Source: Candidatus Amesbacteria bacterium RIFCSPLOWO2_01_FULL_48_25
GTDB lineage: Bacteria; Patescibacteriota; Microgenomatia; CAZETR01; Amesbacteraceae
NCBI GenBank assembly: GCA_001773695.1
Contig: MEXN01000005.1
Coordinates: 3,687 to 67,686, forward strand
Length of the DNA stretch: 64,000 nucleotides
Direction of reading: 5' to 3'
Part shown: positions 11,243-57,557 of the stretch, piece by piece
Layout of the letters: the number at the start of each line of letters is the position of its first letter
Position numbering within the stretch: position 1 is the first letter of the stretch
Notes under the pieces: generated by a model
The model's database searches: none
What the model was told of the DNA's origin: nothing
What the model saw: the letters and a program-made list of their open reading frames with translations, nothing else
Program-made: the position numbers and the translations under genes

Positions 11243-11266
11243 AAAAGATCATATTGACAAGCGATT

Positions 11267-22560: not shown

Positions 22561-22574
22561 TTATAACTTAAAAA

Positions 22575-24331: not shown

Positions 24332-24339
24332 AGATTAGT

Positions 24340-24702: not shown

Positions 24703-24811
24703 TAACCATAATAGTAACTATATGGTAACGGTGACTATATGGTTACAGTAGCTATCTCTTGTAAGAAATGAGTATTAGTTATATAACAGTATTAGTGTTT
24801 TAGAACTGAAG

Positions 24812-26362
24812 ATGAATATGAAAGCGGTACTGTATGCCAGGGTGTCCAGTAGAGAGCAGGAGCAGGGGTATTCATTGGCGGCACAGACAAAGTTGATTAA
24901 GGATTATGCGGAGAGGAACGGTGTTGAGATAATTAGACAATTTGTTTGTTCAGAAAGTGCAAAGGAGGATGGTAGGAAGGTATTTTCCGAGATGGTTGAG
25001 TTTCTAAAAACGAAGCCAGACGTGGAGCTTTTGCTATGCGAGAAGGTCGATAGACTTCTAAGGGGGAATCTGAAAGACAGAGTAGAAGTGGACGACTTGG
25101 TGAGTAAGTATGAAAAGAAAGTAGTGTTTGTAAAGGATGGCACGTCCTACTCTGGGGATTCAAAATCGACGGAAAAATTGACTTATGGAATTCAGGCAGA
25201 GCTGGCGAGGTTTTACCTAAATAACTTGTCTGATGAAGTGAAAAAAGGTTTGACGGAGAAGGCGTCCAGGGGTGAGTATCCGGGTACTCCGCCGTTTGGC
25301 TACGTGAGGAAGGAGGGTAAGATTTTAGTGCATCCGGAGACTTCGGTGGCAGTGAGAAAGGCGTTTGAGTGGTACGCCTCCGGTTCTTACTCGATAAGGC
25401 AGCTTAGGAATAAGCTGGTTGCGGAAGGGTTGGCAACTAAGCTAAACAAGGGGATATTGGGAAGCAGCGATGTGGGCCACATGCTAAGAAATCCGTTTTA
25501 CTATGGGGAGTTTAGGTGGAATGGGAAGGTTTACCCCAGTAACAGTACTTATGAACCGTTGATGAGCAGGGATTTGTGGAATAGAGTGCAGGAAACATTA
25601 GATGAGCAGAATAAACCCAGGACTCGGAGGCATAACTTTAACTTCACCATGTTGTTGCGATGTGGGGAGTGCGGGTACAGCGTGACGGCGGAGAAGAAGA
25701 CTAAATTTTACAAGAAGACTGACAGGAAGGCCGAATACACTTACTATCATTGCACTAGGCCCGATTACGGACGGATAAAATGCCATCAGAAGCCAATTAC
25801 GGAGGAGGAGATGGTGGGCCAACTTACTGGAATTGTGGATTCCATTTCAATTACGGAGGAAGTGGTGGAATTGATGAAAAGTATTCTGCGAAAGGGAGTT
25901 GATGAGGAGCACGTGTATCACACTCAAGCCATTGAAGCTCTAAGTCAGAGATATAAGGAATTTCAGGAGAAAAAGCGGAGGTTGCTGGATGGGTATTTGG
26001 ATGGTGCCGTTAAAGAGGCAACATACCAGGAGAAGGATGAGGAATTGGAAAGGGAACTAAGGGAGGTCGTGGCTCAAAGAGAGAAGCACGAAAGTGGAAA
26101 TAGAGTCTACTATGAGCAAATTGAGAATTTCATTGAAGTGTGCCACCGGGCTCCGGAACTATTCAGAAGTTCCAGTCCTAAGCTAAAACGGGAACTTTTG
26201 AGGTATGTTGTATCGGACCTCCGGTTGATAGACGGAAAAGTCCTATGTACCTACAAATTTCCGTTCTCGGAACTTCTGAAAACAAAGGAAAATGGTAATT
26301 GGCAGGGGCGGAAGGAATCGGACCTTCGTCATTGGTTTTGGAGACCAAGAGCCTACCACTGA
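24812..26362 (+). CDS. large serine recombinase (resolvase/invertase N-domain + recombinase domain + zinc-ribbon + coiled coil)
   Basis: 'AVLYARVSSREQEQGYSLAAQ' catalytic-Ser motif; 'LLRCGECGYSV...YYHCTRPD' zinc ribbon; long coiled-coil C-terminus. Confidence 0.85.
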   Translation: MNMKAVLYARVSSREQEQGYSLAAQTKLIKDYAERNGVEIIRQFVCSESAKEDGRKVFSEMVEFLKTKPDVELLLCEKVDRLLRGNLKDRVEVDDLVSKYEKKVVFVKDGTSYSGDSKSTEKLTYGIQAELARFYLNNLSDEVKKGLTEKASRGEYPGTPPFGYVRKEGKILVHPETSVAVRKAFEWYASGSYSIRQLRNKLVAEGLATKLNKGILGSSDVGHMLRNPFYYGEFRWNGKVYPSNSTYEPLMSRDLWNRVQETLDEQNKPRTRRHNFNFTMLLRCGECGYSVTAEKKTKFYKKTDRKAEYTYYHCTRPDYGRIKCHQKPITEEEMVGQLTGIVDSISITEEVVELMKSILRKGVDEEHVYHTQAIEALSQRYKEFQEKKRRLLDGYLDGAVKEATYQEKDEELERELREVVAQREKHESGNRVYYEQIENFIEVCHRAPELFRSSSPKLKRELLRYVVSDLRLIDGKVLCTYKFPFSELLKTKENGNWQGRKESDLRHWFWRPRAYH

Positions 26363-27718: not shown

Positions 27719-28945
27719 GTGGTTGTAAAGACGGGTGATCATGGATGTATGGAATTGGGGTCGGGATTGTTTAATCTGTCGGGGATGAGTTCGCCTGTGG
27801 CTATTGTGGACCAGGTGATTTCGGAGGCGATTCGGGTTACGGCGTCCGACATACTTTTGGAGCCGGAGGAGAAAGAAGTCCGGGTGAGATTGCGGGTGGA
27901 CGGGGTGTTGCAGACTTACGGGACGATGGCCCACGGGGCATATGACCAGGTGCTGTCGCGGATAAAAGTGCTGGGTAACATGGATGTGACGGAAAATAGA
28001 AAGCCCCAGGAGAGTAAGATCCGGGTGGAAGTGGAGGGACACCCGTATGTCCTGCGGGCGGGGATTGTTACTACTAATTTTGGCCAGATGGCGGCCTTGC
28101 GGGTGTTGGACTTGCCTCAGTATACACAGTTTACTCAATTGGGGGTGTCTGAGGCTTTAGCTTCTAAAATTAGAAGTAATATATCTGGTCGATACGGATT
28201 GTTTTTAGTGTGCGGGCCGACGGGGTCAGGGAAAACGACCACGGTTCACGCGTGCCTTAAGCACTTGAATACGGGCGAAGTAAATATCATGACAATTGAA
28301 GACCCGGTGGAATATGTCATGCCGGGGGTGAACCAAATTGAGGTGGGAGAAGATGTGGGATTGGATTTTGTCCGGGGTTTGCGGCAAATATTGCGACTGA
28401 ACCCGGATATAGTTTTTGTGGGGGAGATTAGGGACGCGGAGACGGCTAAAATTGCGGTTCAGGCGTCTCTTACGGGCCATCTGGTGATTTCCACAATTCA
28501 TGGGAGAAATAGTGTGGGGGCGATTTATAGACTTTTGGACTTGGGAATAGACCGATTTATGATCAACTATGCTTTGCGGGCGGTGGTGTCGCAGCGGTTG
28601 ATGCGGCGGATATGTGAGCATTGTAGGGAAGATTATCGGGCGACGCCTGAGGAGTTGGCTCTGTATGCCCGAGAGACGGGCAAAAAACCATTGCAGCTCT
28701 TAACAGGCCGCGGCTGTGAAATGTGCCACCAGAGCCGGTTTCGCGGCCGGGTGGGGATATATGAGATGCTGGAGATGGACGAGGAGACGCGCCAGCTGAT
28801 TTTTTCGGGAGCGGATGAAGAAGTGTTTAAAAAGGAGCTACTTAGGAAAGGGTTTAAGACTATGAACGAAGAGGGAATAAGACTGGTGGACGAAGGAGTG
28901 ACGTCCATCCCCGAGTTTATCCGGACGATGTATGATGCCAGATGA
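27719..28945 (+). CDS. type II/IV secretion-system ATPase (PilB/GspE/PilT family), compact form lacking the long N-terminal domains
   Basis: Walker A 'CGPTGSGKTTT', Asp box, Walker B 'IVFVGEIRD', His box, tetracysteine 'CEHC...CEMC'. Confidence 0.8.
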   Translation: MVVKTGDHGCMELGSGLFNLSGMSSPVAIVDQVISEAIRVTASDILLEPEEKEVRVRLRVDGVLQTYGTMAHGAYDQVLSRIKVLGNMDVTENRKPQESKIRVEVEGHPYVLRAGIVTTNFGQMAALRVLDLPQYTQFTQLGVSEALASKIRSNISGRYGLFLVCGPTGSGKTTTVHACLKHLNTGEVNIMTIEDPVEYVMPGVNQIEVGEDVGLDFVRGLRQILRLNPDIVFVGEIRDAETAKIAVQASLTGHLVISTIHGRNSVGAIYRLLDLGIDRFMINYALRAVVSQRLMRRICEHCREDYRATPEELALYARETGKKPLQLLTGRGCEMCHQSRFRGRVGIYEMLEMDEETRQLIFSGADEEVFKKELLRKGFKTMNEEGIRLVDEGVTSIPEFIRTMYDAR

Positions 28946-32329: not shown

Positions 32330-32379
32330 TTGGAGTATCTCTTAAGTAAAAAGGTTTTTGGGGGGAGAGTCAAGAGGGG

Positions 32380-34818
32380 TTACTGTCTGATGGTTCCGGT
32401 GACGGGATCGTAGCCGCCCTGGATGAATTCGTAGTCGGACCAGGGGATGGAGCTGAGAGCGCTGAAGGTCAGGCCCAGATTTTGCCACGCGGTTTTATTT
32501 AACTCAAGCTGTACCCGGTTTCCTGCGCCGGTGTTGTCTCCTACAGTGCAGCCGTAAGTTTGAAGGGCCCTGGCTATTACTAGGGCGGGTGGGGTTAGGC
32601 CTTTGGTTGAGAGATTTACACTGGGTTTGATGCGGGCGACAATGCCTTCGGGGACGATGCCGCCTTTGGCACCTTCGTCACCGGACATCGGCCAGTAGTG
32701 GTTGGCGTAATTGGTTCCAGTGGCCCACCAGAAGCACTCCAGGCGGTGGTTGATGGCGCCGGCTTGGACCTCGTCCACCCGGATGGCGCGGGCGGGGGGA
32801 GGGATACCTCGGTGACCGAAATTTAAGACTGTGGTATAGCCGGTGACTCCGAAAGCTAGGCCATTGGAGTCCAGAACGTAATGCTTGAATGATGCATAAG
32901 ACCAGGAGTTGCTGGTGCTGTTGTATACGGCTTTCCACATTTCTATGACCTGGTTCCAGCCCCGATCGTAGACGATGAGCGCTCCGTCAGAGCCCGATGC
33001 TGGTTTGGCGCCAAGAGGGATACGGTAAGGGATGGTAACAGTGACGGGATTGTTGGTGACTGGGTCTATGTAGGTGTAGTTGTAGTTATAGGTGGGGTCG
33101 GAGGCGGTAGCCCAGTAGATGGGGTAGCCAAAGTCTTGGAGAGCGTCGGGGGCGGCGGTAAGCCCAAGATAGTCGAGATTCTCCGAAGATGTTTGGCTAT
33201 CTGTAATATAGGTGGAGCTGTGAATATCGATGGGAGCATTGGCCGGCATGGGGACGTTCCAGTAACTGTCGTTGGTGTGGGAGCGATAGACGGAGCCTAC
33301 TGGTGGAGGAGTGGGAGTGGGGCCTGATGGAGTGGGGGTAGGAGTCGGGGTGCGGGTGGGAGTGGGGCCGGTAGTGGTGGGGGTAGGAGTAGTGGGAGGA
33401 GAGGGGGCGGGGAGGAAATTGGTGCGCCAGATGAGGTAGTCGAGGCCGTTGACTGTAGAATCCGAGTTGAAGTTAGCCGGGGAGATGGACAGACCGTAAT
33501 CCCGGGCCCATAATCCCAGATCACCTAGGTCTACGTCCCCGTCATGGTCGGCGTCACCAGGGGGGAACGAAGTGGAGGAAGTGGAGATGACCAGGGCCGG
33601 GCGGCAGCTGGGAATGGCAGTGGGACAGGTGGCTTCGGAAGAGTAAATATCCAGGCCGTCAATGTCGGTCTGGTCCAGGCCGACAGAGTAATAATTACCC
33701 CGGTTGGCAGAGACAGAAGAAGTGATGTCGATTAGTTTAGTTTCGCCAAGGGTTCCCCCGGGGTTGGTAGCCAGAACTGTTCCTAGGGGGTAACTGGTGG
33801 AATTGGAGTAAGTTAGAGTGCTTTCGGACCAAGAGGAATTGGAAATGAATTTAACCGATTGGGTGGAAGTGGAGTCTGAGTTTGTGGCCTGGGAAACGGT
33901 AAGCCGGAGTTTGGCCGAGGTAATGGTGGTGTTACTTAGATTTCTCAGGTCAAACTTGAGAAATGAGATTTTAGTGGTGGGTGAAGCATCTACTCCCAAG
34001 ACACCGCTTGAACCATAGTTTGAGGAAGGGCTGCCCGAGTCCACGTAAGTGTCTTCAATTGCTGTAAGAGTAAATGTACCTCCGGGTGGAAGTGTGGGGG
34101 TGGGAGTAGGTGCGGTCGAGGAAATGGTGATATTGAGTTGGGAAGTGGGGGCCGCCAAGATATCTTCGACGGTGGTTGCGGCGGTGACATTGGAGTCGGT
34201 GGTTGAGGAGAGGGAAGTGAAGACGAATTTGATGGGATTGGTTCCGGCGGGAGCGGTAGATTTGACCTGGAAAGTGAAAGTGGCCACATCGACAGTGGAA
34301 CCATTGGTGGAGTAGGCGGCGGTGGGGGCATTGGCACCCCAGTTGAAGCGAACAAAGCCGAATTCGGCAACGCCCCGACCGGAGGGGCAACCAGACGAGC
34401 CGCCGTTGTTGGCACAATTTATGACCCTTAACAAATCGAATGTTCCTGTACTGGTGACGGGGGCAAAGGTGGCCGAGGTGGAGTTGAGGTTGGTGTCTCC
34501 AGTGGGATTGATGGTGATACCGGTTAAGGAGAGCTGGTCGGCGTTGAAGCTGGTTAGGATGTCGCTGCCGGATATGGATTGGGTGTTGGTATTGAGCCTG
34601 ACGGTGACGGGAAATGAGTTACCGGGTGAGTAGGTGGTTGGGGAAAGAGGGGCAAAGGTGAGGGTGGCCGTGTCGGCGAGGGCGGCTTTCTTTTTGAAGA
34701 GCTGGGTTTGACGGACCGCAGTCAAGCCGAGAAATAAACCCAGAAGGAGAAGGAGGATGATAAACAGACCGCGGCGATTGTTGGGCATAAGATGAAAACT
34801 GTTAGGGCCAGGTAACAC
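32380..34818 (-). CDS. giant N-terminally anchored surface protein with internal dockerin and Pro/Thr linker; C-terminal domain of unknown function
   Basis: TM 'LFIILLLLLGLFLGL'; dockerin 'GDADHDGDVDLGDLGLWARDYG...FNSDSTVNGLDYLIW' near-identical to that of 29627..32329; PTPT linker. Confidence 0.65.
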   Translation of the reverse strand: MLPGPNSFHLMPNNRRGLFIILLLLLGLFLGLTAVRQTQLFKKKAALADTATLTFAPLSPTTYSPGNSFPVTVRLNTNTQSISGSDILTSFNADQLSLTGITINPTGDTNLNSTSATFAPVTSTGTFDLLRVINCANNGGSSGCPSGRGVAEFGFVRFNWGANAPTAAYSTNGSTVDVATFTFQVKSTAPAGTNPIKFVFTSLSSTTDSNVTAATTVEDILAAPTSQLNITISSTAPTPTPTLPPGGTFTLTAIEDTYVDSGSPSSNYGSSGVLGVDASPTTKISFLKFDLRNLSNTTITSAKLRLTVSQATNSDSTSTQSVKFISNSSWSESTLTYSNSTSYPLGTVLATNPGGTLGETKLIDITSSVSANRGNYYSVGLDQTDIDGLDIYSSEATCPTAIPSCRPALVISTSSTSFPPGDADHDGDVDLGDLGLWARDYGLSISPANFNSDSTVNGLDYLIWRTNFLPAPSPPTTPTPTTTGPTPTRTPTPTPTPSGPTPTPPPVGSVYRSHTNDSYWNVPMPANAPIDIHSSTYITDSQTSSENLDYLGLTAAPDALQDFGYPIYWATASDPTYNYNYTYIDPVTNNPVTVTIPYRIPLGAKPASGSDGALIVYDRGWNQVIEMWKAVYNSTSNSWSYASFKHYVLDSNGLAFGVTGYTTVLNFGHRGIPPPARAIRVDEVQAGAINHRLECFWWATGTNYANHYWPMSGDEGAKGGIVPEGIVARIKPSVNLSTKGLTPPALVIARALQTYGCTVGDNTGAGNRVQLELNKTAWQNLGLTFSALSSIPWSDYEFIQGGYDPVTGTIRQ

Positions 34819-37786
34819 TTGCAGAACAAGATTCGTAGAAAGTGGTGGCTAGAATGTAGGGACTTGCTATTATATTGCCACTGAAAAGGAAGACCAGATC
34901 TTTGGTTTGTCCGACGGCGGTAACCCTGTTACCCGTCGACCAGGAGCTAATTGTGGCTGTGCAAACACCCGTGGTTGAATTGCATGACCCGGTTGAGCCT
35001 GTCCAAATAATCACACCAGCAAGGGTAATCTTTTGAAGTTGGCCTTTATAGTACGGCCAGGTGAGAGAAATGCTGGAAATTGTGGCATTAGCTGTGGATT
35101 TTGTTGGGTCATTAAATATCCTGGAGTAAAAGCTGTTTCCGCCCGCTCCTTGGGAAGTCAGGTTGACGTAGCAGACAGGGATAGGGGTGGGGGTGGGAGG
35201 AGCTGGGGTTGGGGTGCGGGTGGGAGTAGGAGGGATGGGAGTAGGGGTGCGGGTGGGAGTAGGGGCTGTTGTGGTGGCAGTGGGAGAGAGGGTGGGGGAT
35301 GGGGTGGAAGCGGGGAGAGGACCGGCGAGGGAGGCGAAATCAAGGGAATTGACTTTGAAGTCCCCATTTTGGTCCAGGATTGAGCTGAGCCAGGAGAGAA
35401 GGAGATTTTTGATGGTGGCGATGGGGGTGGGTGAGATGGTTGGTCCCAGGCTGGTTAATACAGCTCCGTCGTCATAAATCAAACCAACCCCGGGAGCATA
35501 GCGCTTGGTACTGGGGGGAGTTTCATTTACCAATAAGACATTGTTGAAGGTGCCAGCGGGAACTGTATATGTCCCAAATGATATGTGTAGAGCCCGATCT
35601 TCAGCGAATCCTGGAGCAAATTCTTGATAATAAGACTGGCCTACTGCTGGAGAGGCCGGCATGATTATACCCGGCCTGAAATTTGGGTGAGCTGGATCGT
35701 CATAAGCAATCCAGGAGCCTGCTATGGGATTTCCGTTGCCGTCGAACACATCCTCGCCATAGTAGCAGACGGTGCCATTGGGGGCCTGAACAAACCAGTT
35801 ATTCGATACTTCAACAAGAGTACCATTTAGCCACTCTCTCTCCTCTATCACGCGGGTGGTTATGCCGCCTATAACTTTTGTTTGATTTAAGACACTGAAC
35901 TGAACCTTAAGTCCTCCACCTTCGAGTATGTGTACCAGGCCGACTGGCAGGGGGAAGTAGGGATTGTTGATGTTAAGAGAGAAAGGACCGTTGGCGCGGT
36001 CGCAGACGGCAATATCGATCTCGCCCGTTGAAGGCTGAGTGGGAGTGGGAGCACCTGAAGGAGTGGGAGTGGGAGGAATTGGAGTTGGGGTTCGGGTGGG
36101 AGTAGGGCCGGAGGTGGGTGAGGGACCGGGAGTGTTGGTGGGTCCAACACCGCCAGAATTTAGGGTAATGGTATCGCGGTTAACTCCTGTTTGGTCAATA
36201 TAGCTGGCAGTCATGGTGTCGCCATTGACCTGGAAATATAGAAAACCGGCGTCGGAGTCGCCGGAAGCCGATTTGGCGGCACAGCCCGGACCAGGACTGG
36301 TAGAAGTGCAACTGGAAGAGCCACTTTTACCACCATTCCCGATAGTATAGGCCTGGACGTTGGGGTAAAAACCGGGTTTTCGGTTCCAGCGTTCGAAAAC
36401 GTGGGAGTGGCCCCAAAGAACCAGATCGGCTCCGGCATCGGAGGCCATGCGAATTAAGTTGTCTATGATAGCTGTATTTGTGGAGTGAGATCCGGCAGAC
36501 CAGCCGTTGTGGTGCCAATAGACGACCTTCCAAGGCTGGTTTGAGGTAATCAAGTTATTGTAAGCCCAGGCTACCTGGGGATCGGAAGCGGAAGGATTGG
36601 TAGCATTGTAAGCGTAGCTACTGTTGGAATTTAGGGCTACGAAGTGAACGTTGCCATAATCAAACGCGTAAGTTGATATTTGGGACGACATTTTTCCTCC
36701 ACCGGGTAGACTATGGTCGGCCATTACCGTGGGGCAAGAAGTCTCGTGATTGCCGCAGGTGACGTAAAAAGGAGAGAACGACATCGTATTTTGGCCGGGA
36801 GAGGCATCAGAGTAGCGATCGAAATAAAGAGTATTGTTGTTACTAAAACTGGTGCTGTATGGGTAAGCGATGTCGCCGGCAACTATGGTCACATCCGGTC
36901 TTTTGGCAAAAACTTGTTTGGCAACGTTATTTTGGCGGGTGCCGTTGTCGCCAGAATCTCCCCAAATGGCCCAGGTGAAGGGGGTGGATGAGCCGACGGC
37001 GGGAGGAGTTTTGAAATAGTGGTTGGGATCACCGGCCGGGGTTAAGGCCGTTCCTGTGGTAGTGGTAACTTGATAGTAATATGAGGTGTTTGGAGCCAGG
37101 CCGGTGATTTTGGCGTGGTTATTATTCCCGCCGGTACAAGGAAAGCTGGAGTTGTTACCGCAATTTATTAACTGCTCGGCGTCACTAGTCACTTGGCTGC
37201 CGTAAGAAGTCGTCAATCCGTACTTGACGATGAGCTGGTTCTGGGTATTGGTTACCCATCTGAAATCATATGAAGCGGTGGTGGCTTTTTGTAAAAAAAC
37301 CTTTCTGGTGAGGTTTGCGGAACCAGGAATTGGTGTCGGGGTTGGGATTGGGGTATTTGTTGGAACGAGGGTGGGGACGGGGGTGTTGGTAGGGACGGTT
37401 TGGTTTGTTAAACACAAGCAATTTGTCCACTGAACTTCGTGCCTATCGATTGCCCCAGCCGGGCAATATATGGTGCCTTGGGTATTTTCGATAAAGTTAG
37501 AGCAGGTACCACTCAATTCAATGCATGAATTATTTGTTGAATCCCTGGCGAAGTACTTGTTGTTTGATGCAGACGAGTCGGTGCCAACATCATAGCATTG
37601 AAATCCGTATCCTTGGTTTGCGCATACGTCATTACATGTAGCCCCATTAGAAGTCGGACCTGCCTCACCTCCATTGAAAACTACTCTTGAGGTGGTTTGT
37701 GACAGGACCGGTCTTGGTAGAAGTATTAGGAGGAGGAAGAGGGTGAGGATGAACGAGAATTTTTTGGACATTATAGTTAGATTCAA
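34802..37786 (-). CDS. giant secreted protein containing an FN3 + purple-acid-phosphatase-type metallophosphoesterase domain, Cys-rich N-domain, Pro/Thr linkers and a half-dockerin-like segment
   Basis: metallophosphatase motifs 'WGDSGDN', 'GDIAYP', 'GNHE', 'VYWHHNGWS', 'WGHSHVFER'; signal peptide; 'DQNGDFKVNSLDFASL' dockerin-like half site. Confidence 0.7.
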   Translation of the reverse strand: MNLTIMSKKFSFILTLFLLLILLPRPVLSQTTSRVVFNGGEAGPTSNGATCNDVCANQGYGFQCYDVGTDSSASNNKYFARDSTNNSCIELSGTCSNFIENTQGTIYCPAGAIDRHEVQWTNCLCLTNQTVPTNTPVPTLVPTNTPIPTPTPIPGSANLTRKVFLQKATTASYDFRWVTNTQNQLIVKYGLTTSYGSQVTSDAEQLINCGNNSSFPCTGGNNNHAKITGLAPNTSYYYQVTTTTGTALTPAGDPNHYFKTPPAVGSSTPFTWAIWGDSGDNGTRQNNVAKQVFAKRPDVTIVAGDIAYPYSTSFSNNNTLYFDRYSDASPGQNTMSFSPFYVTCGNHETSCPTVMADHSLPGGGKMSSQISTYAFDYGNVHFVALNSNSSYAYNATNPSASDPQVAWAYNNLITSNQPWKVVYWHHNGWSAGSHSTNTAIIDNLIRMASDAGADLVLWGHSHVFERWNRKPGFYPNVQAYTIGNGGKSGSSSCTSTSPGPGCAAKSASGDSDAGFLYFQVNGDTMTASYIDQTGVNRDTITLNSGGVGPTNTPGPSPTSGPTPTRTPTPIPPTPTPSGAPTPTQPSTGEIDIAVCDRANGPFSLNINNPYFPLPVGLVHILEGGGLKVQFSVLNQTKVIGGITTRVIEEREWLNGTLVEVSNNWFVQAPNGTVCYYGEDVFDGNGNPIAGSWIAYDDPAHPNFRPGIIMPASPAVGQSYYQEFAPGFAEDRALHISFGTYTVPAGTFNNVLLVNETPPSTKRYAPGVGLIYDDGAVLTSLGPTISPTPIATIKNLLLSWLSSILDQNGDFKVNSLDFASLAGPLPASTPSPTLSPTATTTAPTPTRTPTPIPPTPTRTPTPAPPTPTPIPVCYVNLTSQGAGGNSFYSRIFNDPTKSTANATISSISLTWPYYKGQLQKITLAGVIIWTGSTGSCNSTTGVCTATISSWSTGNRVTAVGQTKDLVFLFSGNIIASPYILATTFYESCSASVTWP

Positions 37787-39939: not shown

Positions 39940-41265
39940 TCATGTGGGTTTGTTTAAAAGTATAGCCAATCCTAAACCTGTCACAATAACAGCAGATAGG
40001 ATCGAGATATACTTTTCTGTGTTTGCAAAATGGGGTATTTTTTGCAAAGTCATTTTTTTGGAAACAACCACCAAGACACCTCCAATAACCAAAGCGCTGG
40101 CAAGGCCAAGACTAAAAATCACCAAAAGAATAATCCCGAACAATATCTTTCGCACCGAGACGGCAACTACCAAAATAGCCAGAGCATCAACACAAGGAAC
40201 AATCCCTCCAGAGATACCCAAGGGCATCAGGTTTTTCCAATCAATCTTACTCACATTATCTTCGTGCAAATGTGGATGTAGATGCTCATGCTGGGGTTTA
40301 AACAAATCAACTATCCTAGTAACCAGAAGGTATAGTCCAAACCCGGTAACCAGAATCCCCGATACGACATTCAACCACTTAATAATGGTGACCGGCACAA
40401 TATATTGAGTAAGAAGCAGAGCCAGAAGACCCAAAATAAAAACGCTGGCGGTGTGGGTAATAGTGATTATCAGACCTAGTTGAACGGCATGAGTAATCGT
40501 TCCTTTCTCACCGACTAGATAACCGGCAACGATAGCTTTGCCGTGTCCTGGGGTTAACGCATGAAGCATGCCTATTACAAAAGCAGCAAAGAGGGCAAGC
40601 CCGGCTAGTTTCGTTGGTACTTTGTCAACTTTTACGTAAGTGTTTAAAAAAATGTTTATTCTGGATCCAGCACTTATACCCAGAACCGAAGGGCTATTTT
40701 TCTGGCCCTCACTAACTTTAATTTTGACCGAGTCGGATTCTACTTTTTCCAAAACATCCGCCTTTAGACCTTCTGTACCTTTGGCTGACAGTTCAAACTC
40801 CCCTAATTTTTTGTCCTTTCCTTGGTAGTGGTAACTCCAAATTTGTCCTGGCAAAAATTTCCCGCTAGTTTCAAACTCGATACTAACGTTAGCTGGCCGG
40901 GGTAAATAAAAGGCGTAGTAGCCTGGAAACGATAACTTATGGGCTGAAAAGTCATATCTGGTTCCATCTAATTCCAACCATGACGAGTCTTGGCCCTTTA
41001 TCATCCAGGAGTCTTTTTCTTTCTGGGAAATTTCCCGATCTTTATTTATGTCGATACTTTCCCAAATTTTATTTTTGTCCAAGGGGTATAATATCAATTG
41101 GATAGTCAGCTTTGCCTGACGAGGGGATATCTCCAATATTTGTCTCTGGTCGTAAGTTATGGTATTTCCAAACTCGTCGACGGGGTGAGCTTGGGCGGTG
41201 CCTGGGTTGGACAAAACTAAAAGAGTGAGGAGGGTGAGTGCAAAGGGTTTCATGAAAGTCTGCAA
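39940..41265 (-). CDS. fusion of a periplasmic beta-sandwich domain and a 6-7 TM transporter-like domain with 'LHALTPGHGKA' motif (putative Ni/Co-type metal transporter)
   Basis: signal peptide, soluble N-domain, then TM region with HxxxPGHGK and second His-rich loop 'HEHLHPHLHED'; family assignment tentative. Confidence 0.45.
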   Translation of the reverse strand: MQTFMKPFALTLLTLLVLSNPGTAQAHPVDEFGNTITYDQRQILEISPRQAKLTIQLILYPLDKNKIWESIDINKDREISQKEKDSWMIKGQDSSWLELDGTRYDFSAHKLSFPGYYAFYLPRPANVSIEFETSGKFLPGQIWSYHYQGKDKKLGEFELSAKGTEGLKADVLEKVESDSVKIKVSEGQKNSPSVLGISAGSRINIFLNTYVKVDKVPTKLAGLALFAAFVIGMLHALTPGHGKAIVAGYLVGEKGTITHAVQLGLIITITHTASVFILGLLALLLTQYIVPVTIIKWLNVVSGILVTGFGLYLLVTRIVDLFKPQHEHLHPHLHEDNVSKIDWKNLMPLGISGGIVPCVDALAILVVAVSVRKILFGIILLVIFSLGLASALVIGGVLVVVSKKMTLQKIPHFANTEKYISILSAVIVTGLGLAILLNKPT

Positions 41266-50182: not shown

Positions 50183-51238
50183 ATGTTTGATTACTTTTTC
50201 GGGTTGCTTTCGCATGACGTGGGGATTGATTTGGGGACGGCCAATACTCTGGTGCATGTCAAAGGCCGGGGGATTGTAATTCGCGAGCCGTCGGTTGTGG
50301 CTCGGCACAGAAAGACCCATCAGGTGTTGGCTATTGGTGAGGAGGCCAAAAAAATGCTGGGGCGGACGCCAGCTACAATTGAAGCCTTAAGGCCACTTAA
50401 AGACGGAGTGATTGCCGATTTTGATGCGACTGAGGCGATGCTGTCATACTACATCAGACTGGTGCATGAGTCGGGGCGGCTTATTCCTAGGATTCCCAAG
50501 CCCAGGGTGGTTATTGGAATTCCCTCGGGTGTGACCGAAGTGGAGAGGCGGGCGGTGCAGGAAGCGGCGCTTAGCGCCGGGGCCAGACAATGTTTTTTGA
50601 TTGAGGAGCCGATGGCGGCGGCTATCGGGGCGCAGTTGCCTATTGATGATGCTGGGGGGGTGATGGTGGTTGATATTGGCGGTGGGACGAGCGAGATGGC
50701 GGTAATTTCCTTGGGAGGGATAGTCTTGAACAAGTCGATCAGGATTGCCGGTGATGAGATGGACGAGGCGATTATCCACTATGTGAGGCTGAAATATAAT
50801 GTACTTTTGGGAGAGCGGACGGCGGAGGATGTGAAGTTTTCTTTAGGCAACGCCCATGTGTCTGCTTTTGAGAACCAAGTGAAGTATATGGTTGTTCGTG
50901 GGCGGGATTTGGAGAGCGGGCTTCCTAGAAGCCTAAAGATTACTTCAGACGAGATCCGAGAAGCGCTGATGCCAACTTTAAGAGAGATTACGTCGGCTGT
51001 TGCTGATTTGATTGAGGTGACTCCGCCGGAACTGGTGGCGGATGTATTGGAGCGGGGAATTGTGATGGCCGGAGGGGGGAGCATGATTGCCGGAATGAGT
51101 AAGCTAATGGAGGACGAGACGCGGATGCCGGTATATGTGGCGGACGATCCGATGACGGCTGTCGTTCGGGGGTGTGGCATGGTGTTGGAGGACGAGCAGC
51201 TTCTTAAAAGAGTGAGAGTGGTGGGAGGACTGAGATAG
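50183..51238 (+). CDS. mreB: rod-shape-determining actin homolog MreB
   Basis: 'VGIDLGTANTLV', 'VVDIGGGTSEMAVISLGG', actin-fold phosphate loops. Confidence 0.9.
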   Translation: MFDYFFGLLSHDVGIDLGTANTLVHVKGRGIVIREPSVVARHRKTHQVLAIGEEAKKMLGRTPATIEALRPLKDGVIADFDATEAMLSYYIRLVHESGRLIPRIPKPRVVIGIPSGVTEVERRAVQEAALSAGARQCFLIEEPMAAAIGAQLPIDDAGGVMVVDIGGGTSEMAVISLGGIVLNKSIRIAGDEMDEAIIHYVRLKYNVLLGERTAEDVKFSLGNAHVSAFENQVKYMVVRGRDLESGLPRSLKITSDEIREALMPTLREITSAVADLIEVTPPELVADVLERGIVMAGGGSMIAGMSKLMEDETRMPVYVADDPMTAVVRGCGMVLEDEQLLKRVRVVGGLR

Positions 51239-51278: not shown

Positions 51279-52904
51279 ATGCGTAAATTCAGGCCGGGGT
51301 TGAGTTTTTCCGATTTTGTACAGCGGGGGGGGAAGGTATGGAAATTTAGGGCCGAGGAGCAGAGAGATTACCGGAGGGGATGGTTGGTGTGGCTGGGGGT
51401 TGTCGTGGTGTTTGGAGTATTGGGAGTACGACTTACCGGCTTGACGGTATTTTCAGGTGGAAAGTATCGGGTACTGGCGGATGAGAACCGGATTTCTAGG
51501 ATTAGGCTGCCGGCGCCCAGGGGAAAAATTTTGGATAGGAACGGAGTAGAGTTGCTCCGAGACGAGGCGACCGCGCACGTGGTGGGTTATGTGGGGGAGG
51601 TAAGCGAAGATGAGGTAGGGCTTTTGAAAGAAAAGGGGGCCAAATACACTCCTGGAAGTTTGATTGGCAGATCAGGGATAGAAGCTCAGTACGAAGAAAC
51701 TTTGCGGGGGGTGGATGGGGGGAGGCTGGTGGAGGTGGATAACGTAGGTGAGGCAGCCCGCGAGTTGGGCAGGCGGGAGCCGGTAGCGGGGACTGATTTG
51801 CGGTTATCAATAGACGCTGGCCTACAGGAAATAGCATATAAGTCATTAAATGGTCAAAAGGGGGCGGCGGCGGTTTCTGATCCGAGGACGGGAGAAATAT
51901 TGGCGCTGGTGTCGTCGCCGTCGTTTGATCCAAACGAGATTAGTACTAAGTATGAAGTACTAAGTGCAAAGGCGGACTTACCTTTTTTCAACCGGGCGAT
52001 TGGCGGTGTATATGCGCCGGGGTCGACTTTTAAGATAGTAACGACCACGGCAGCCCTTGAGTCGGGGAATGTCGAACCGGATTTTGTGTTTGAGGACCGG
52101 GGAGTGATAACCGTGGGTAGTTTTAGCTACACCAACTGGTTGTTTACCAAACGGGGGGGAATAGAAGGGGTGGTGGGATTTGATCGGGCTTTGACCCGCT
52201 CAACGGATACATTTTTTTATAAGGTGGGGGAGTTGACAGGGCCGGAAATCATAGTCGAGTGGGCCAAGAAAATGGGGTTGGGGGAGAAAACCGGGATTGA
52301 TTTGCCCGGAGAAGTGGCTGGATTGGTGCCGGACCCAACGGCTGGCTCAGGGCAAGGCTGGTATTTGGGGAACACGTATCACTTGGCGATTGGGCAAGAA
52401 GACTTGCTGGCGACGCCGTTGCAGATTAATGTGATGACTAATATTATTGCTTCGAACGGAAAGAAATGTAAGCCTAGGCTGGTTAATACCGCCCTCTCCA
52501 GTCCCCCTCCTAAATTAGGAGGGGGAAGTAAGGGGGAGGTATGTAGCGAGGTTAAGATTTCATCCGAAACCCTTGAAATTATTAAAAAGGGGATGGTGGG
52601 GGCGTGCAGTACCGGGGGAACGAGCTTTGTGATGTTTGATTGGAATGCGTCGGAGTCGTTTCCGAAGATTGCTTGTAAGACGGGGACCGCTGAGTATGTG
52701 GCCCAGAACGGCCGGATAAAAACCCACGCTTGGCTGACGGCCTTTGCTCCGGCTGATAACCCCGTGATTTCGGCTACGGTAGTGTTTGAGGGCGGGGGGG
52801 AAGGATCCAATGTGGCAGCGCCGGCGGTCCGGAAAATATTTGCTAAATATTTTGGGGTGGAAGACACTTATCCTTACGGGGCGATTAGGGGGGAGGGAGA
52901 ATAA
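51279..52904 (+). CDS. mrdA: penicillin-binding protein 2 (class B transpeptidase) with in-frame palindromic insertion
   Basis: N-terminal TM, dimerisation domain, transpeptidase motifs 'STFKIV' (SxxK), 'SNG'-like 'ASNG', 'KTGTA'. Confidence 0.85.
   Translation: MRKFRPGLSFSDFVQRGGKVWKFRAEEQRDYRRGWLVWLGVVVVFGVLGVRLTGLTVFSGGKYRVLADENRISRIRLPAPRGKILDRNGVELLRDEATAHVVGYVGEVSEDEVGLLKEKGAKYTPGSLIGRSGIEAQYEETLRGVDGGRLVEVDNVGEAARELGRREPVAGTDLRLSIDAGLQEIAYKSLNGQKGAAAVSDPRTGEILALVSSPSFDPNEISTKYEVLSAKADLPFFNRAIGGVYAPGSTFKIVTTTAALESGNVEPDFVFEDRGVITVGSFSYTNWLFTKRGGIEGVVGFDRALTRSTDTFFYKVGELTGPEIIVEWAKKMGLGEKTGIDLPGEVAGLVPDPTAGSGQGWYLGNTYHLAIGQEDLLATPLQINVMTNIIASNGKKCKPRLVNTALSSPPPKLGGGSKGEVCSEVKISSETLEIIKKGMVGACSTGGTSFVMFDWNASESFPKIACKTGTAEYVAQNGRIKTHAWLTAFAPADNPVISATVVFEGGGEGSNVAAPAVRKIFAKYFGVEDTYPYGAIRGEGE
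52497..52540. repeat. GC-rich palindromic element inside mrdA (CCCCCTCCTAA-A-TTAGGAGGGGG), in frame, encodes SPPPKLGGGSKGE
   Basis: seen directly. Confidence 0.8.
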
Positions 52905-52905
52905 A

Positions 52906-54138
52906 TTACCGGCAGACGCAATATGTCCATCTGGTGAGTTGGTTTGATGTGGACCCTTTTGAACAATAGTTTGATAAGAATGAACTGGTCATTAAAGTGG
53001 CACAGTTCCCACCTTCTGTGACGCAGTCGTAATTTACATAACATGACGATGGAGAGAATGGACAGTTGAGGTCGGCGGGGTCGGAGTATCCGGGAATTAT
53101 GATATCAACGCAAGAGAGGCCACGGCTGCTGCAGATCATGGCACAGGAATCGCCAGTGCCTGCGTTGAGTATCGGAGCGAGGGTGGGGGTGGGGGGAATG
53201 GGGGTGGGGGTGACCACATTAATAACATAACTTGCAAACGGTCCGGGACAGCGATAAACGGGTGGTCCACTAACACAGTCGCTGTTCCCTCGACATTCCG
53301 CAATACCATCATTCCATGCTCGGCAATCGATGACATATCTACCGCCAACCGTGGGAGTCCATGTGAATGACACGTTCCCCGGTCCGCCCGGTGAATCTTG
53401 CCAGAAATTCTGTGTCGCGCAATTATTACTTGTTACTGCCGTTCCCCTGCTGGTTACCGGTCCGTTGTAGTTTTCGTAAGTGAAAGTGTACGTCGCTGGA
53501 TTTCCTAGCACTATTGTTGAAGGTCCAGTCACATTCTTGCAATTGGGATATGGGGGTAGGGTTGGGGTGGGGGTGGGGGGGGACGAAAGACATTGGCAGA
53601 TGAGGGAGGAGATGCAGTAGGGTTGGTTTGGAGATGTGCAGTTGTTTTCAACCACTGATCCTATGTCGCACTGGCAGGTGTTTGGAGGAAGAAATGAGGT
53701 GGGGGTGGGGGGAATGGAAGTGGGTGGTGGGGTAGTGGGGACTCGGGTGGCTGTGGGTGGGGGAGGTGGGAAGGTCGGTTGGGGGGGGGAAGACGAGAAA
53801 CCTGAGGTAAAGGAAGGGATTTGGTAAGAGATGAGGTTGATCCCAAAAAACTGGGAGGCGAGGCGGATGATGAGTAAAATACATAAAAGAATGGTCAGAC
53901 CTACGAGAGCAGAAATGAGCCTTTTTCTGGCTTGACCCAGAGCTTCTTTGTCACCTCCAGCGGTTAAAAATTGATAGCCTCCCCAGATGAGCATGAACAG
54001 AAAGACAATGCCGCCGATTATGAGTGCCAGGGTGAGGACGGCCTGAAAGATGTTGGAGAGAATCGTTCCCAGCTTGTCTAATCCTAGCTGACCTAAGGCT
54101 GGAGTTAGAATTGGGTTTACCAGGGCAAATAGAGGCAT
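52906..54138 (-). CDS. fusion protein: N-terminal VirB2/TrbC-like (T4SS-pilin-like) two-TM hairpin domain + Pro/Thr linker + Cys-rich C-terminal domains
   Basis: 'ALIIGGIVFLFMLIWGGYQFLTAGGDKEALGQARKRLISALVGLTILLCILLII' two hydrophobic helices separated by charged loop; long PTPT linker; ~30 Cys in C-terminal half. Confidence 0.55.
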   Translation of the reverse strand: MPLFALVNPILTPALGQLGLDKLGTILSNIFQAVLTLALIIGGIVFLFMLIWGGYQFLTAGGDKEALGQARKRLISALVGLTILLCILLIIRLASQFFGINLISYQIPSFTSGFSSSPPQPTFPPPPPTATRVPTTPPPTSIPPTPTSFLPPNTCQCDIGSVVENNCTSPNQPYCISSLICQCLSSPPTPTPTLPPYPNCKNVTGPSTIVLGNPATYTFTYENYNGPVTSRGTAVTSNNCATQNFWQDSPGGPGNVSFTWTPTVGGRYVIDCRAWNDGIAECRGNSDCVSGPPVYRCPGPFASYVINVVTPTPIPPTPTLAPILNAGTGDSCAMICSSRGLSCVDIIIPGYSDPADLNCPFSPSSCYVNYDCVTEGGNCATLMTSSFLSNYCSKGSTSNQLTRWTYCVCR

Positions 54139-54150
54139 ATTATTGATTGC

Positions 54151-55467
54151 TTATTGGCAGCGACAATAGGTCCAGTCTACGAAGTGTCCAGTGCAGACAA
54201 CGTAACCACCGGCGATTTGTGGCTGTCTAGTTAGTGTGGTGTTGCAACTAGCCGGTTGACTGTATGAACAAGAGAAGCCGCTAAGTGTGTTGTAAGTTCC
54301 TCCGGTTCCGGTAGCATTGGTTCCGATGTCGATACATGTCCTGCCGGAATTGCCGCAAACCGTGTTACAAGATTGAGAGATGCCAGGCGCTGGTTCATTG
54401 AGAACCACGACGGGAACTGGGGTAGGGGTGGAAGTGGGGACGGAACATGGGCGGATTCCGGTACAGGAAGTACTGCTAACAGGACTTTCTAAGGCTTGCC
54501 TGTAGGCTGTGGCCGTGTAGGTATAACTAGTTCCACAAATGGCAGTGAAATCCGGATAAGTGAATGTTTGTCCAGTGCCGATGAGGGGATTGGGATTGTC
54601 GAATAGTCTGAATGCTAGGTCGTTTCTGTATATCCTGAACCCGTCTTCGTCTGTGGAGTTGTCTCTAAAGGTGACAGAAATTCTGTCTGTGAGATTTGTT
54701 GAGCAAGAGACCATGGTTGGAGCGATTAGGGGTGCGAGGGTGGGGGTGGGGGAGGGGCCGGAGCCGCCGCATTTACAGTTTGTCCATTGAGTGGGTCTCC
54801 CTTCGCAAATACCGCCGTCGCTATTTAAGTTGAGTGTGCATACATTTGTACCACCGAAGGCTAATTGGTCTGCGCATGTGCCGCCTACGAAAGCTCTCCT
54901 GGCACCATTCTCACCTGCAGCGTCCGTCCCTCTGCTCACGCAGGTGTACCCCCTGCTTGTACAAGCAGTTTGACAATTGCCCGAAGCGTTTATGGGGACT
55001 ATTGATATGAAGGAGGGGGTGGGGGTGGGCGCGCCTGGGGTTGGGGTGGGAGTGGGGTTTAATATGTCAATCGTCGGGGTGGGCGTGCTGCCGCCGGGGA
55101 AGGTGGGGAGGGGAATGAAAGCACCCGGGCCTTCTGAGAAAGTGGGGAGTTGGAAAGCCAAGAGGTTGACGCCAAAGAACTGGGAGGCGAGGCGGGTGAT
55201 GACCAGGATGCATAAAAGGATGATGATGCCAATAAGGGCGGAGGTGAGGCGTTTACTGGCCATGCCCATTTTTTCTTTGTCCCCTGCTGATGTCAAGAAC
55301 TCGTACCCGCCCCAGATGAGCATGAAAAAAAAGATGACAGCGCCTAGGGTGAGCGCTATGGAAAGAATTGCCTGGAGGAAGTTGGAGACGGTTGGTCCTA
55401 TCTTGTCGACTCCTAGCTGACCTAAGGCTGGGTCCAGGATGGGGTTTATGAAGGCGAAGAAGGGCAT
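54151..55467 (-). CDS. paralog of 52906..54138: VirB2/TrbC-like pilin N-domain fused to a different Cys-rich C-terminal region
   Basis: N-terminal 110 aa ~65% identical to neighbour ('MPFFAFINPILDPALGQLGVDKIG...MLIWGGYEFLTSAGDKEKMG'); divergent C-terminus. Confidence 0.55.
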   Translation of the reverse strand: MPFFAFINPILDPALGQLGVDKIGPTVSNFLQAILSIALTLGAVIFFFMLIWGGYEFLTSAGDKEKMGMASKRLTSALIGIIILLCILVITRLASQFFGVNLLAFQLPTFSEGPGAFIPLPTFPGGSTPTPTIDILNPTPTPTPGAPTPTPSFISIVPINASGNCQTACTSRGYTCVSRGTDAAGENGARRAFVGGTCADQLAFGGTNVCTLNLNSDGGICEGRPTQWTNCKCGGSGPSPTPTLAPLIAPTMVSCSTNLTDRISVTFRDNSTDEDGFRIYRNDLAFRLFDNPNPLIGTGQTFTYPDFTAICGTSYTYTATAYRQALESPVSSTSCTGIRPCSVPTSTPTPVPVVVLNEPAPGISQSCNTVCGNSGRTCIDIGTNATGTGGTYNTLSGFSCSYSQPASCNTTLTRQPQIAGGYVVCTGHFVDWTYCRCQ

Positions 55468-55490: not shown

Positions 55491-57557
55491 ATGATTATGA
55501 ATTTGGTACTAGTGGAAAGCCCGACCAAGGCCAGGACTCTAGGGAAATTTTTGGGAACTGGTTTTGACATTGAGGCGACGTATGGTCATGTGAGGGATCT
55601 GCCAAAGAAGAAGATGGGGATAGAGATAAAGAGATTAAGTGATGGAGTGATGAAGTTTGAGCCGGAGTACGTGAGTACGAAAGAACAGGAGAAAAAGATC
55701 AAAGATATTAAGAGATTAAGTGATAAAGCAGAATGGATATATCTGGCGACAGATCCGGATCGGGAAGGAGAAGCGATTGCCTTTCATGTAGCGGAGCTAC
55801 TGAAAGTCAACAAATCCCAAGCCCCAAGCCCCAAATCCCAAATTAAGAGGATTGTATTTCATGAGATCACGGAACATGCCATAAAAGAGGCGTTGGGGCA
55901 TCCGCGGGGATTGGATATGAAGTTGGTTGACGCTCAGCAGGCGCGAAGAGTGTTGGACCGGTTGGTAGGGTATAAATTGTCTCCATTACTGTGGAAAAAG
56001 ATAAGAAGGGGGCTGTCGGCGGGGAGGGTGCAAAGCGTGGCAGTGCGATTGGTAGTGGAACGAGAAAGGGAGATTGAAGCTTTTAAACCAGAAGAGTATT
56101 GGCAAATCATGGTGGATTTGCTCAAGATCCAAGAACCAAGAAACAAGATACAAGTGACGTTGGTTGAGAAGAACGGGGAGAAAATGAAAATCGGAAATCA
56201 AGTTGAGGCGGAAAAAGTGGAAGGGGATTTGAGGGGGGCGGGATATGTGGTGGAGGGGGTGGAGATGAAGGAGTTTAAGCGGACCCCGCCGGCGCCGTTT
56301 ACAACTTCTACACTTCAGCAGGCGGGGGCAAATAAGCTGGGGTGGAGTGCCAAGCGGACGATGCAAGTGGCACAGGGTTTATATGAAGAGGGACTAATTA
56401 CTTATCACCGGACGGACTCGACAAACATTGCTGTTGAAGCAGCGCTTGCGGTTAGGCAGTTAATTAGTGATCGGTTTGGGAAAGAATATTCTTTAGAGAA
56501 ACCTAGATTCTATAAAACCAAAAGCAAAGTGGCGCAGGAGGCTCATGAGGCCATACGTCCTACGGACGTGAATACCACCTCGTCTCACGGCACCCCTCCT
56601 AATTTAGGAGGGGTCGGGGGTAGTATAAACCGCGACCAGGCGCGATTGTACGAGATGATTTGGAGGAGGTTCGTGGCGTGCCAGATGGCGGAGGTACGGG
56701 GGACGAGTGTTAAAATTAGTGTGGTTGCCGGTCAATACGGCTTGGAAGCAAGGGGTGAAACTATAACTTTTGATGGTTGGTACAAGGTGTTGGAAAAAGA
56801 CGCCGAAGAAAATTTATTGCCGCAGGTGAGTGAGGGGGAGAAGTTGGATTTTGTAGATTTAACAAAAGAGCAAAAATTTACTCAACCGCCAGCCCGGTAC
56901 AATGACGCCTCGCTGATTAAAGCATTGGAGGAGATGGGGATCGGGCGGCCCTCCACGTATGCGCCGACTTTGTCGACAATTCAAGACAGGCAATATGTAG
57001 AGAAGATCGAAAAGCGCTTTAAGCCAACTGAGTTGGGGGTGGCGGTGAATGATTTTTTGGTGGCCAACTTTCCCCGGGAAGTAAATTATGAGTTTACGGC
57101 CAATATGGAGTATGGTTTGGACGAAGTGGCCAATGGAGACAAGGAGTGGCAACCGCTGGTGTCTGATTTTTACGGGCCATTTGAGGCGGATTTAAAGAAT
57201 GTGGAGCAGACGGTGGCGAGAGTGAAAGTGGAAGTGGAGAAAACGGGGGAGAAGTGCCCGGAGTGCGAAGTTGGGGATGTGGTGATAAGAATAGGAAGGT
57301 TTGGAAGATTTTTGGCTTGCAGCCGGTATCCGGAGTGTAAATATAAAGCGAATTATCAGAACAAGATTGGGATGAAATGCCCCAAATGTAGTGAAGGGGA
57401 CGTAATAGTGAGAAAGACCAGAAAGGGCAAGAGTTTTTACGGCTGCAGCCGGTACCCCGATTGCGATTTTGCCAGTTGGACTAAGCCGCAAGTGAGTGGT
57501 CAAGATAAAAAAGAAGGAGGAGATGGACAAACGGGAAAGGGAAGAGCAGAACAGTGA
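55491..57557 (+). CDS. topA: DNA topoisomerase I with C-terminal zinc ribbons; carries one palindromic and one low-complexity in-frame insertion
   Basis: TOPRIM 'LVLVESPTKARTLGKFLG', 'YLATDPDREGEAIA', active-site region 'ITYHRTDST', C4 ribbons 'CPECE...C', 'CPKCSEG...C'. Confidence 0.9.
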   Translation: MIMNLVLVESPTKARTLGKFLGTGFDIEATYGHVRDLPKKKMGIEIKRLSDGVMKFEPEYVSTKEQEKKIKDIKRLSDKAEWIYLATDPDREGEAIAFHVAELLKVNKSQAPSPKSQIKRIVFHEITEHAIKEALGHPRGLDMKLVDAQQARRVLDRLVGYKLSPLLWKKIRRGLSAGRVQSVAVRLVVEREREIEAFKPEEYWQIMVDLLKIQEPRNKIQVTLVEKNGEKMKIGNQVEAEKVEGDLRGAGYVVEGVEMKEFKRTPPAPFTTSTLQQAGANKLGWSAKRTMQVAQGLYEEGLITYHRTDSTNIAVEAALAVRQLISDRFGKEYSLEKPRFYKTKSKVAQEAHEAIRPTDVNTTSSHGTPPNLGGVGGSINRDQARLYEMIWRRFVACQMAEVRGTSVKISVVAGQYGLEARGETITFDGWYKVLEKDAEENLLPQVSEGEKLDFVDLTKEQKFTQPPARYNDASLIKALEEMGIGRPSTYAPTLSTIQDRQYVEKIEKRFKPTELGVAVNDFLVANFPREVNYEFTANMEYGLDEVANGDKEWQPLVSDFYGPFEADLKNVEQTVARVKVEVEKTGEKCPECEVGDVVIRIGRFGRFLACSRYPECKYKANYQNKIGMKCPKCSEGDVIVRKTRKGKSFYGCSRYPDCDFASWTKPQVSGQDKKEGGDGQTGKGRAEQ
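56587..56620. repeat. GC-rich palindromic element inside topA (CCCCTCCTAA-T-TTAGGAGGGG), in frame, encodes TPPNLGGVGG
   Basis: seen directly. Confidence 0.8.

Follow-up and report, generated by a model that had tools for sequence, protein, structure and literature searches.

Patescibacteria depend on attachment to host cells. To our knowledge, no pilus has been seen for a type IV secretion system (T4SS) of these bacteria, and Candidatus Southlakia epibionticum is the one genetically tractable species. The T4SS of Patescibacteria carry arrays of VirB2-like pilins, which are unique among monoderm systems (PMC12102498, PMC12857230). Quinonero-Coronel et al. (2025) described these arrays in the T4SS loci and detected no adhesin (PMC12102498), the array is essential in Ca. 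S. epibionticum (Wang et al. 2023, PMC10633639; PMC12857230), as is its T4SS, and the wording used for pili is “potential to elaborate conjugative pili” (PMC12857230). Two further kinds of surface protein are relevant here: modular type IV pilins, minor subunits through which a simple filament gains the ability to bind (PMC8179133), and the large, strain-variable, Cys-rich extracellular proteins of Peribacteria, members of the candidate phyla radiation (CPR), for which a role in attachment was proposed (PMC4736985). Here we analyse two tandem genes, A and B, in a stretch of 64,000 nucleotides from contig MEXN01000005.1 of Candidatus Amesbacteria bacterium RIFCSPLOWO2_01_FULL_48_25, an uncultured bacterium of ultra-small size (hereafter the window). 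Judged by their sequences, both products belong to the VirB2-like pilin family of Patescibacteria (PF18895) and are modular: a pilin hairpin continues into a long ectodomain of Cys-rich modules. The reading that we favour, at about an even chance, is that they are modular pilins in the functional sense, that is, minor, adhesin-bearing subunits (or pilin-anchored adhesins). Tandem VirB2-like pilins in Patescibacteria are already published (PMC12102498), and B is already annotated as “pilin”. The fusion of a pilin to long modular Cys-rich ectodomains was not found in the literature searched, the coverage of which is incomplete, and the shared unclassified Cys module, the exchange of modules at linkers and the multi-hairpin concatemers described below are not mentioned there either.

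Gene A (52906..54138, minus strand) and gene B (54151..55467, minus strand) are co-oriented and separated by a gap of only 12 nt. An earlier note on this DNA had proposed a tandem pair of paralogs, and both open reading frames (ORFs) were found at exactly these coordinates, with similar residues 1-105. The 410 residues of A comprise the hairpin, a Pro/Thr linker, a 6-Cys mini-module, a linker, a 6-Cys module, a linker and a 10-Cys module; the 438 residues of B comprise the hairpin, a Pro/Thr linker, an 8-Cys module, a linker, a 4-Cys module, a linker and a second 8-Cys module.

The hairpin domains, residues 1-105 of A (53824..54138, minus strand) and of B (55153..55467, minus strand), share 64.8% identity, as good as the roughly 65% first estimated. 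PF18895 (T4SS_pilin, gathering cut-off 26.6 bits) matches residues 21-92 of A with 40.6 bits and residues 27-92 of B with 40.9 bits, and the precomputed Pfam annotation agrees with this assignment. Of the pilin models suggested for a search, this one is well above its cut-off, but the TrbC/VirB2 model PF04956 is not matched at E<=1; the NCBIfam model NF045849 (Mbov_0395 pilin-like conjugal transfer protein, cut-off 40) stays below its threshold with 19.9 bits for A and 27.9 bits for B. Hydropathy places the hydrophobic helices of both proteins at residues ~26-58 and 70-104. The loop between them, GGDKEALGQARKR in A and AGDKEKMGMASKR in B, has a net charge of +2 as counted from the sequence. 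A single-sequence AlphaFold2 (AF2) model of B is a helical hairpin with helices at 20-59 and 64-98 and a predicted local distance difference test (pLDDT) score of 75-83. The proposed topology of two hydrophobic helices and a short charged loop is thereby borne out by hydropathy, loop sequence and model alike.

A set of 38 stand-alone short pilins has 16 positions with at least 85% conservation. Of these, 14 are retained in A and 13 in B, among them the xNP motif, F46/F48, G53, the GGDK loop, A70, A77, G80 and F98-G99. Between the hairpins of A and B the ratio of nonsynonymous to synonymous divergence (dN/dS) is 0.22/1.19, or ~0.18. The retained positions and this low ratio argue that the hairpin is under family-specific constraint beyond hydrophobicity and is no degenerate anchor, and a dS of ~1.2 under such constraint indicates that the duplication is old. 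These values bear on the main rival reading, which we consider plausible, if somewhat less than probable, in which the hairpin is nothing but a two-pass membrane anchor, A and B are membrane-held surface adhesins or binding proteins with Pro/Thr spacers crossing the wall or surface layer, and neither a T4SS nor a pilus is involved. Keeping 13-14 of the 16 family residues, including the NP and GGDK motifs, with a dN/dS of ~0.18 is more than an anchor needs.

The N-termini, MPLFALVNPIL in A and MPFFAFINPIL in B, place seven residues before the conserved NP motif, with no start codon upstream. No classical cleavable Sec signal peptide is present; a signal-peptidase site was among the features for which the earlier note proposed a check. 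Short leaders are usual in the hairpin subfamily, with a median of 12 residues.

Could A and B be chance open frames on a C-rich minus strand? The window has an extreme GC skew (+0.31), and its strong strand bias makes long antisense ORFs common, with many of 100-160 amino acids (aa) present. Against this stand the PF18895 scores of both proteins above the cut-off, the 29,642 family representatives at E<=1e-3 that a profile of four hairpins retrieved from a library of 1.84 billion proteins, the dN/dS of ~0.18, and a third-position skew of A and B like that of genuine minus-strand genes; moreover, the longest competing plus-strand ORF over A and B has at most 147 aa. The DNA of both genes also recurs unchanged in many independent assemblies. 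A protein identical to B lies on NCBI contig DATEVR010000283.1 of the Patescibacteria metagenome-assembled genome (MAG) GCA_035258405.1, where its NCBI name is “pilin”, protein A is recorded on the same contig, and the exact A protein is present on 15 contigs. B seemed to be missing from contig L164, which proved to be a gene-calling artefact, as the DNA there is 100% identical. On the Pfam match, the number of homologs, the third-position skew, dN/dS and the identical DNA we rejected the spurious-ORF reading, whose chance of being correct is negligible.

The strand bias deserves a remark of its own. The window contains 20272 G and 10747 C, with 16489 A and 16492 T, and third-codon-position skew runs from +0.45 to +0.64 in plus-strand genes and mostly from -0.28 to -0.70 in minus-strand genes, a pattern which makes the bias mutational and not coding. 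A similar or stronger skew occurs at about 10% of related Patescibacteria loci and reaches at most 0.48.

Beyond the membrane A has 22 cysteines (23 in all) and B has 20 (21 in all), fewer than the ~25-30 that had been attributed to each C-terminal region. Every module has an even count: 6, 6 and 10 in A, and 8, 4 and 8 in B. The Pro/Thr linkers noticed after the hairpin are present in both proteins, and they also bound every module. In A, the mini-module (residues 154-184, CQCDIGSVVENNCTSPNQPYCISSLICQC; 53587..53679, minus strand) is followed by the middle module (~residues 199-309, 6 Cys; 53212..53544, minus strand) and the terminal 10-Cys module (residues 325-410; 52909..53166, minus strand). 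In B, linker 1 (residues 106-158; 54994..55152, minus strand), which appears as G-runs on the plus strand and holds the repeat families D2-D5 and D8, leads to copy 1 of the 8-Cys module (residues 159-237; 54757..54993, minus strand), the middle module (~residues 251-345, 4 Cys; 54433..54717, minus strand) and copy 2 of the 8-Cys module (residues 357-438; 54154..54399, minus strand), which ends in WTYCRCQ.

One module of 8-10 cysteines with the pattern C-x3-C-x3-G-x2-C ... W-T-x-C-x-C is common to both proteins and occupies the end of A and both 8-Cys positions of B. BLASTP aligns the two copies of B with E = 1e-8, and a hidden Markov model (HMM) from four proteins of other metagenomes, built without any window sequence, recovers the copies of A, B1 and B2 with E-values of 5.7e-5, 1e-6 and 5e-8. 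The C-termini had been called unrelated, a description that no longer holds: since a homologous module is present once in A and twice in B, they are shuffled. The same HMM (3e-12) and a further HMM search (9e-12) detect the module at residues 45-125 (37412..37654, minus strand) of a 994-aa metallophosphoesterase or purple-acid-phosphatase-like protein (ORF 34802..37786, minus strand; Pfam Metallophos and Pur_ac_phosph_N). There it directly follows a signal-peptide-like N-terminus, which indicates that the module is extracellular, and its position at the start of such a protein suggests a mobile extracellular domain that is not confined to pilins.

No Pfam or NCBIfam family covers any module of A or B. 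The two middle modules, beta-rich by eye, have no Pfam match even at E<=10, and an initial impression of FN3-like or Ig-like folds was dropped for this reason. A profile of the Cys module has no match among PDB sequences. Structure prediction, which the earlier note had recommended for the C-terminal domains, succeeded in part: copy 2 of the B module, modelled by AF2 from an 8-sequence alignment, reached a mean pLDDT of 74 and shows a short helix followed by beta strands, but Foldseek gave no fold match for it in PDB or BFVD, and the ectodomain in the single-sequence model of B, with a pLDDT below 50, is unusable. The Cys module is an unclassified extracellular disulfide domain.

Close variants of A and B differ by whole modules, with the junctions within linkers. 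P0009 corresponds to A without the mini-module, and P0002 to B without the first Cys module. A contig of 759 bp (L087, ENA ERZ4903137) carries the A middle module at 98% DNA identity, then a B-like terminal module at 88%, after which a third pilin gene, similar to P0004, begins. The A-like middle module of the variant gene is interrupted by an in-frame stop (ENYN*PVTS). With this additional gene start and the stop, the A/B locus of related strains varies in the number of its genes and possibly also in whether they are intact. In L088/P0003 quite other Cys-rich domains come after the B middle module (87.7% DNA identity). Four further samples yielded contigs that match the window at 100% identity but begin at 55046, 55040, 54776 and 54750, which are exactly both borders of the module missing from P0002; population heterogeneity or linker repeats would produce contig starts of this kind.

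At the DNA level the Pro/Thr linkers are repeated G-runs on the plus strand (e.g. GGGTGGGGGTGGGGGGAATGGGGGTGGGGGTG), at 53167-53212, 53545-53585 and 53697-53786 in A and at 54425-54441, 54724-54758 and 54997-55054 in B. Runs such as GGGTGGGGGTGGGGG have six repeats over both genes. By sequence pattern, this DNA could form G-quadruplexes. The picture of a conserved stalk with variable tips, as originally drawn, fits the deletions and swaps of modules at strain level, but the tips are not wholly different, as they share a homologous module. Because modules are swapped, gained and lost between strains, A and B are probably variable attachment proteins, and varied binding specificity is the likely outcome of module deletion or exchange.

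To see how widely this architecture is distributed, we compared the 155 closest proteins (150 library matches, earlier matches, and A and B themselves). Searches were made domain-wise with profiles, as a full-length B query gave 3 proteins, with Pro/Thr-linker words swamping the candidates; word-indexed searches gave 2 matches for the hairpin and 1 for the Cys module, and an exhaustive profile search was used instead. Of the 155 proteins, 29 are extended at the C-terminus by 60 aa or more, mostly by Cys-rich sequence. P0007, P0014 and P0024 contain the same large Cys module as A and B, and the motif of the A mini-module occurs in P0007, P0008 and P0014. In P0062 the large Cys module is N-terminal to the hairpin, which implies that the hairpin has its two ends on one and the same side of the membrane. 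About half of the 155 have 2-8 hairpins in one chain, which suggests hairpin-hairpin packing over simple anchoring. Such multi-hairpin relatives include P0033 (8 in 820 aa), P0015, P0016, P0029, P0077 and P0104, and the three-hairpin ORF of P0007 was confirmed on its contig, L083. A protein of 1038 aa, P0137, combines a TrbC/VirB2 domain (PF04956, 60.8 bits) with five PF18895 hairpins, a combination that links the two families and lends indirect support to equivalence with VirB2.

Another relative, P0149 (255 aa), has its hairpin directly followed by a Hint/intein autoprocessing domain (PF14890, 40.9 bits; PT-HINT, Hint), which hints at C-terminal cleavage, ligation or cyclisation chemistry on that pilin. 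The C-terminal region of A and B might be a pro-domain or cargo that is cleaved after export to give a normal short pilin and a released Cys-rich protein. For this there is precedent in the C-terminal trimming of TrbC of RP4, processing would then occur somewhere in the family, and the linker is long and exposed. We nevertheless regard it as very unlikely: neither A nor B contains a protease site, a Hint domain or a conserved cleavage motif, the module can also sit before the hairpin, and the chain of stand-alone members ends immediately behind the FFG...NL motif.

The closest relatives of the hairpin were also surveyed in 79 species-representative genomes with 611 pilin ORFs, mostly from Ames-, Woese-, Collier-, Gottesman- and Daviesbacteria (Microgenomates group). 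The arrays typically consist of 6-9 pilin genes. They are bordered by genes for a SpoIID-domain protein and for two unknown proteins that are conserved, and a PrgI/VirB3-like gene lies within 10 kb of the array in 19 of the 79 loci. C-terminal extensions of at least 60 aa are confined to 9 of the 611 ORFs, in contrast to the 29 among the 155 proteins closest to A and B. Many MAGs titled “uncultured Gammaproteobacteria” or “Pseudomonadales” (L005-L007, L010, L014 and others) carry Patescibacteria-like arrays, and these titles are probably mislabels.

Fused homologs are found in differing contexts. P0014 occupies the final position in a canonical pilin array, adjacent to the SpoIID-domain gene, a location that speaks against the hairpin being an anchor only; P0008 and a second long fusion lie in tandem beside FtsEX/M23, and P0011 adjoins ComEA/ComEC. 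The A/B pair itself is flanked by mrdA/PBP2 (51279..52904, plus strand) on the side of gene A, preceded by mreB (50183..51238, plus strand), and by topA (55491..57557, plus strand) on the side of gene B. The adjacency to mreB-mrdA pointed out in the earlier note is therefore real in the window, but it is not conserved among fused homologs. Because the fused homologs adjoin other genes or lie within pilin arrays, a functional link to mreB-mrdA was rejected, and the neighbourhood of A and B looks incidental.

Several observations weigh against a role of A and B in a pilus. To the missing PF04956 match is added that a 40-sequence profile of the hairpin family matches no solved pilin in PDB sequences, so that structural equivalence to VirB2/TraA can only be inferred (a sensory rhodopsin transducer transmembrane hairpin, matched at E ~1, is noise), and Foldseek with the hairpin model gave no informative match. 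A Pfam scan of the window ORFs of at least 170 aa found no T4SS gene, as the earlier note had said of VirB4 and VirD4; walking outward from the window ends met only housekeeping genes, and no further pilin hairpin occurs in any window stop-to-stop frame of at least 40 codons. The only secretion ATPase in the window, a 408-aa protein of the T2SSE family (27719..28945, plus strand), belongs to a type IV pilus or type II secretion system. It is GspE/PilB-type, for which reason its identification as VirB11 was rejected, and as it aligns only to the C-terminal ~375 residues of the models, it is without the GspE/PilB N-terminal domains. An appendage of ~300 aa on every subunit would be hard to pack in a filament, so that only minor or tip incorporation is plausible. 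In the literature searched, no pilus has been shown for any PF18895 protein, and “pilin” is an annotation. No domain match in Pfam, NCBIfam, PDB or BFVD supports a binding function of the modules. Finally, some of the variant evidence comes from short metagenome contigs that are possibly misassembled or chimeric at repeats; in the case of L087, the swapped module is only 88% identical, which speaks against reads of this strain itself having simply been joined in a chimera.

Part of this would suit the reading of the hairpin as a mere membrane anchor. T4SS genes and short pilins are lacking near A and B, and the fused homologs P0008 and P0011 are likewise found among housekeeping genes and not in arrays. 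The Cys module also occurs in an ordinary secreted protein that resembles an enzyme, the bulky ectodomain is awkward in a filament, and CPR bacteria are known for large surface proteins that are rich in cysteine and vary between strains (PMC4736985). The retained family residues, the array position of P0014 and the concatenated hairpins of many relatives stand on the other side.

If A and B are modular pilins, the following mechanism may be envisaged. The hairpin would insert in the cell membrane such that its loop is cytoplasmic and its two ends are external, and it would do so without a Sec signal peptide, as most stand-alone pilins of the subfamily presumably do. The positive charge of the loop and the occurrence of the module at either end would fit such an N-out, C-out arrangement with the ectodomain outside. 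The Pro/Thr spacers would keep disulfide-bonded, independently folding modules off the surface, where these may bind a surface ligand on a host cell or a substrate. The hairpin would let A and B enter or cap a pilus-like polymer of short pilins together with a T4SS, possibly as minor subunits that work like the modular type IV pilins of Streptococcus sanguinis. In the F-pilus structure the corresponding loop forms the lining of the lumen, with both termini exposed at the filament surface (PMC5018250), so a C-terminal fusion would be displayed outside if the hairpin entered such a polymer. As the sequence variants show, whole modules are lost or exchanged at the G-rich linker DNA of close strains, and this probably varies the binding specificity. 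We think it rather unlikely, on the other hand, that the pair stands for a class of modular T4SS (VirB2-type) pilins not described before, with a hairpin that enters the Patescibacteria T4SS pilus, Cys modules as the hitherto undetected host-picking adhesins, host specificity reprogrammed by cassette-like gain, loss and exchange of modules through recombination at the G-run (G-quadruplex-prone) linkers, and the multi-hairpin and Hint relatives as elaborations of the same filament.

Elsewhere in the window, a block at ~20000-26400 has low GC (0.39-0.41), no GC skew and small ORFs only, and it ends at a large serine recombinase (24812..26362, plus strand), the 3' end of which overlaps a tRNA-Trp gene (26300-26373, minus strand). 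It looks like a recently integrated mobile element. A NicO/DsbD_2-like membrane protein (39940-41265, minus strand; nickel/cobalt efflux by NCBIfam) is encoded by the only window gene without third-position skew (-0.03), and its GC content at third codon positions is lower (0.43), both of which suggest recent acquisition. The window encodes many proteins with predicted roles at the cell surface or in binding; a cluster of cohesin/dockerin-domain proteins and giant LamG/CBM96/cohesin surface proteins are encoded at 10352-13743 (plus strand) and 29627-34818 (minus strand).

Could pilin hairpins with exchangeable disulfide-rich modules be the element by which these bacteria recognize their hosts? 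If the reading as modular pilins is true, they would be obvious candidates, and A and B are concrete proteins to seek in proteomes, by cryo-electron tomography and in binding assays. Shuffling of modules at linker repeats would be a simple way, open to testing, in which specificity could come to vary between strains. As an unclassified extracellular domain, the Cys module deserves to be defined as a family of its own. If the hairpin is only an anchor, it would represent a lineage-specific tether for surface proteins, useful for annotation and unsurprising.

With the conjugative pilins TrbC, VirB2 and TraA (PF04956), A and B share two long hydrophobic helices and a short basic loop. They differ in having no PF04956 match, no cleavable Sec signal peptide, a monoderm host and a large C-terminal ectodomain. 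PilB of S. sanguinis is comparable in design, with an N-terminal polymerisation or anchor module and a C-terminal adhesive module (PMC8179133), a likeness by analogy: the modular type IV pilins have an unrelated fold and machinery, with a class III signal peptide and a single N-terminal alpha-1 helix, both of which A and B are without. Neither protein matches a type IV pilin family in Pfam or NCBIfam, and each has two transmembrane helices instead. The Cys-rich proteins of Peribacteria, which we liken by description only, are extracellular, rich in cysteine and strain-variable, as A and B appear to be (PMC4736985).

The closest counterparts are the Patescibacteria pilin arrays, which resemble A and B in family (PF18895), in phylum and in consisting of tandem divergent paralogs. 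The mostly Microgenomates arrays of our survey, SpoIID-flanked and in part near PrgI/VirB3-like genes, match the published description (PMC12102498). A term search of the text of that study gave no mention of pilin fusions. Published arrays adjoin VirB4, VirB6 and PrgI/VirB3, whereas A and B have mrdA and topA as their neighbours, and the 64-kb window contains no T4SS gene. The hairpins of A and B are 65% identical, compared with a published within-array maximum of 54% (PMC12102498). The published array members, encoded near virB4, are small (~100-160 aa), while A and B, at 410 and 438 aa, carry modular Cys-rich ectodomains of ~300 aa.

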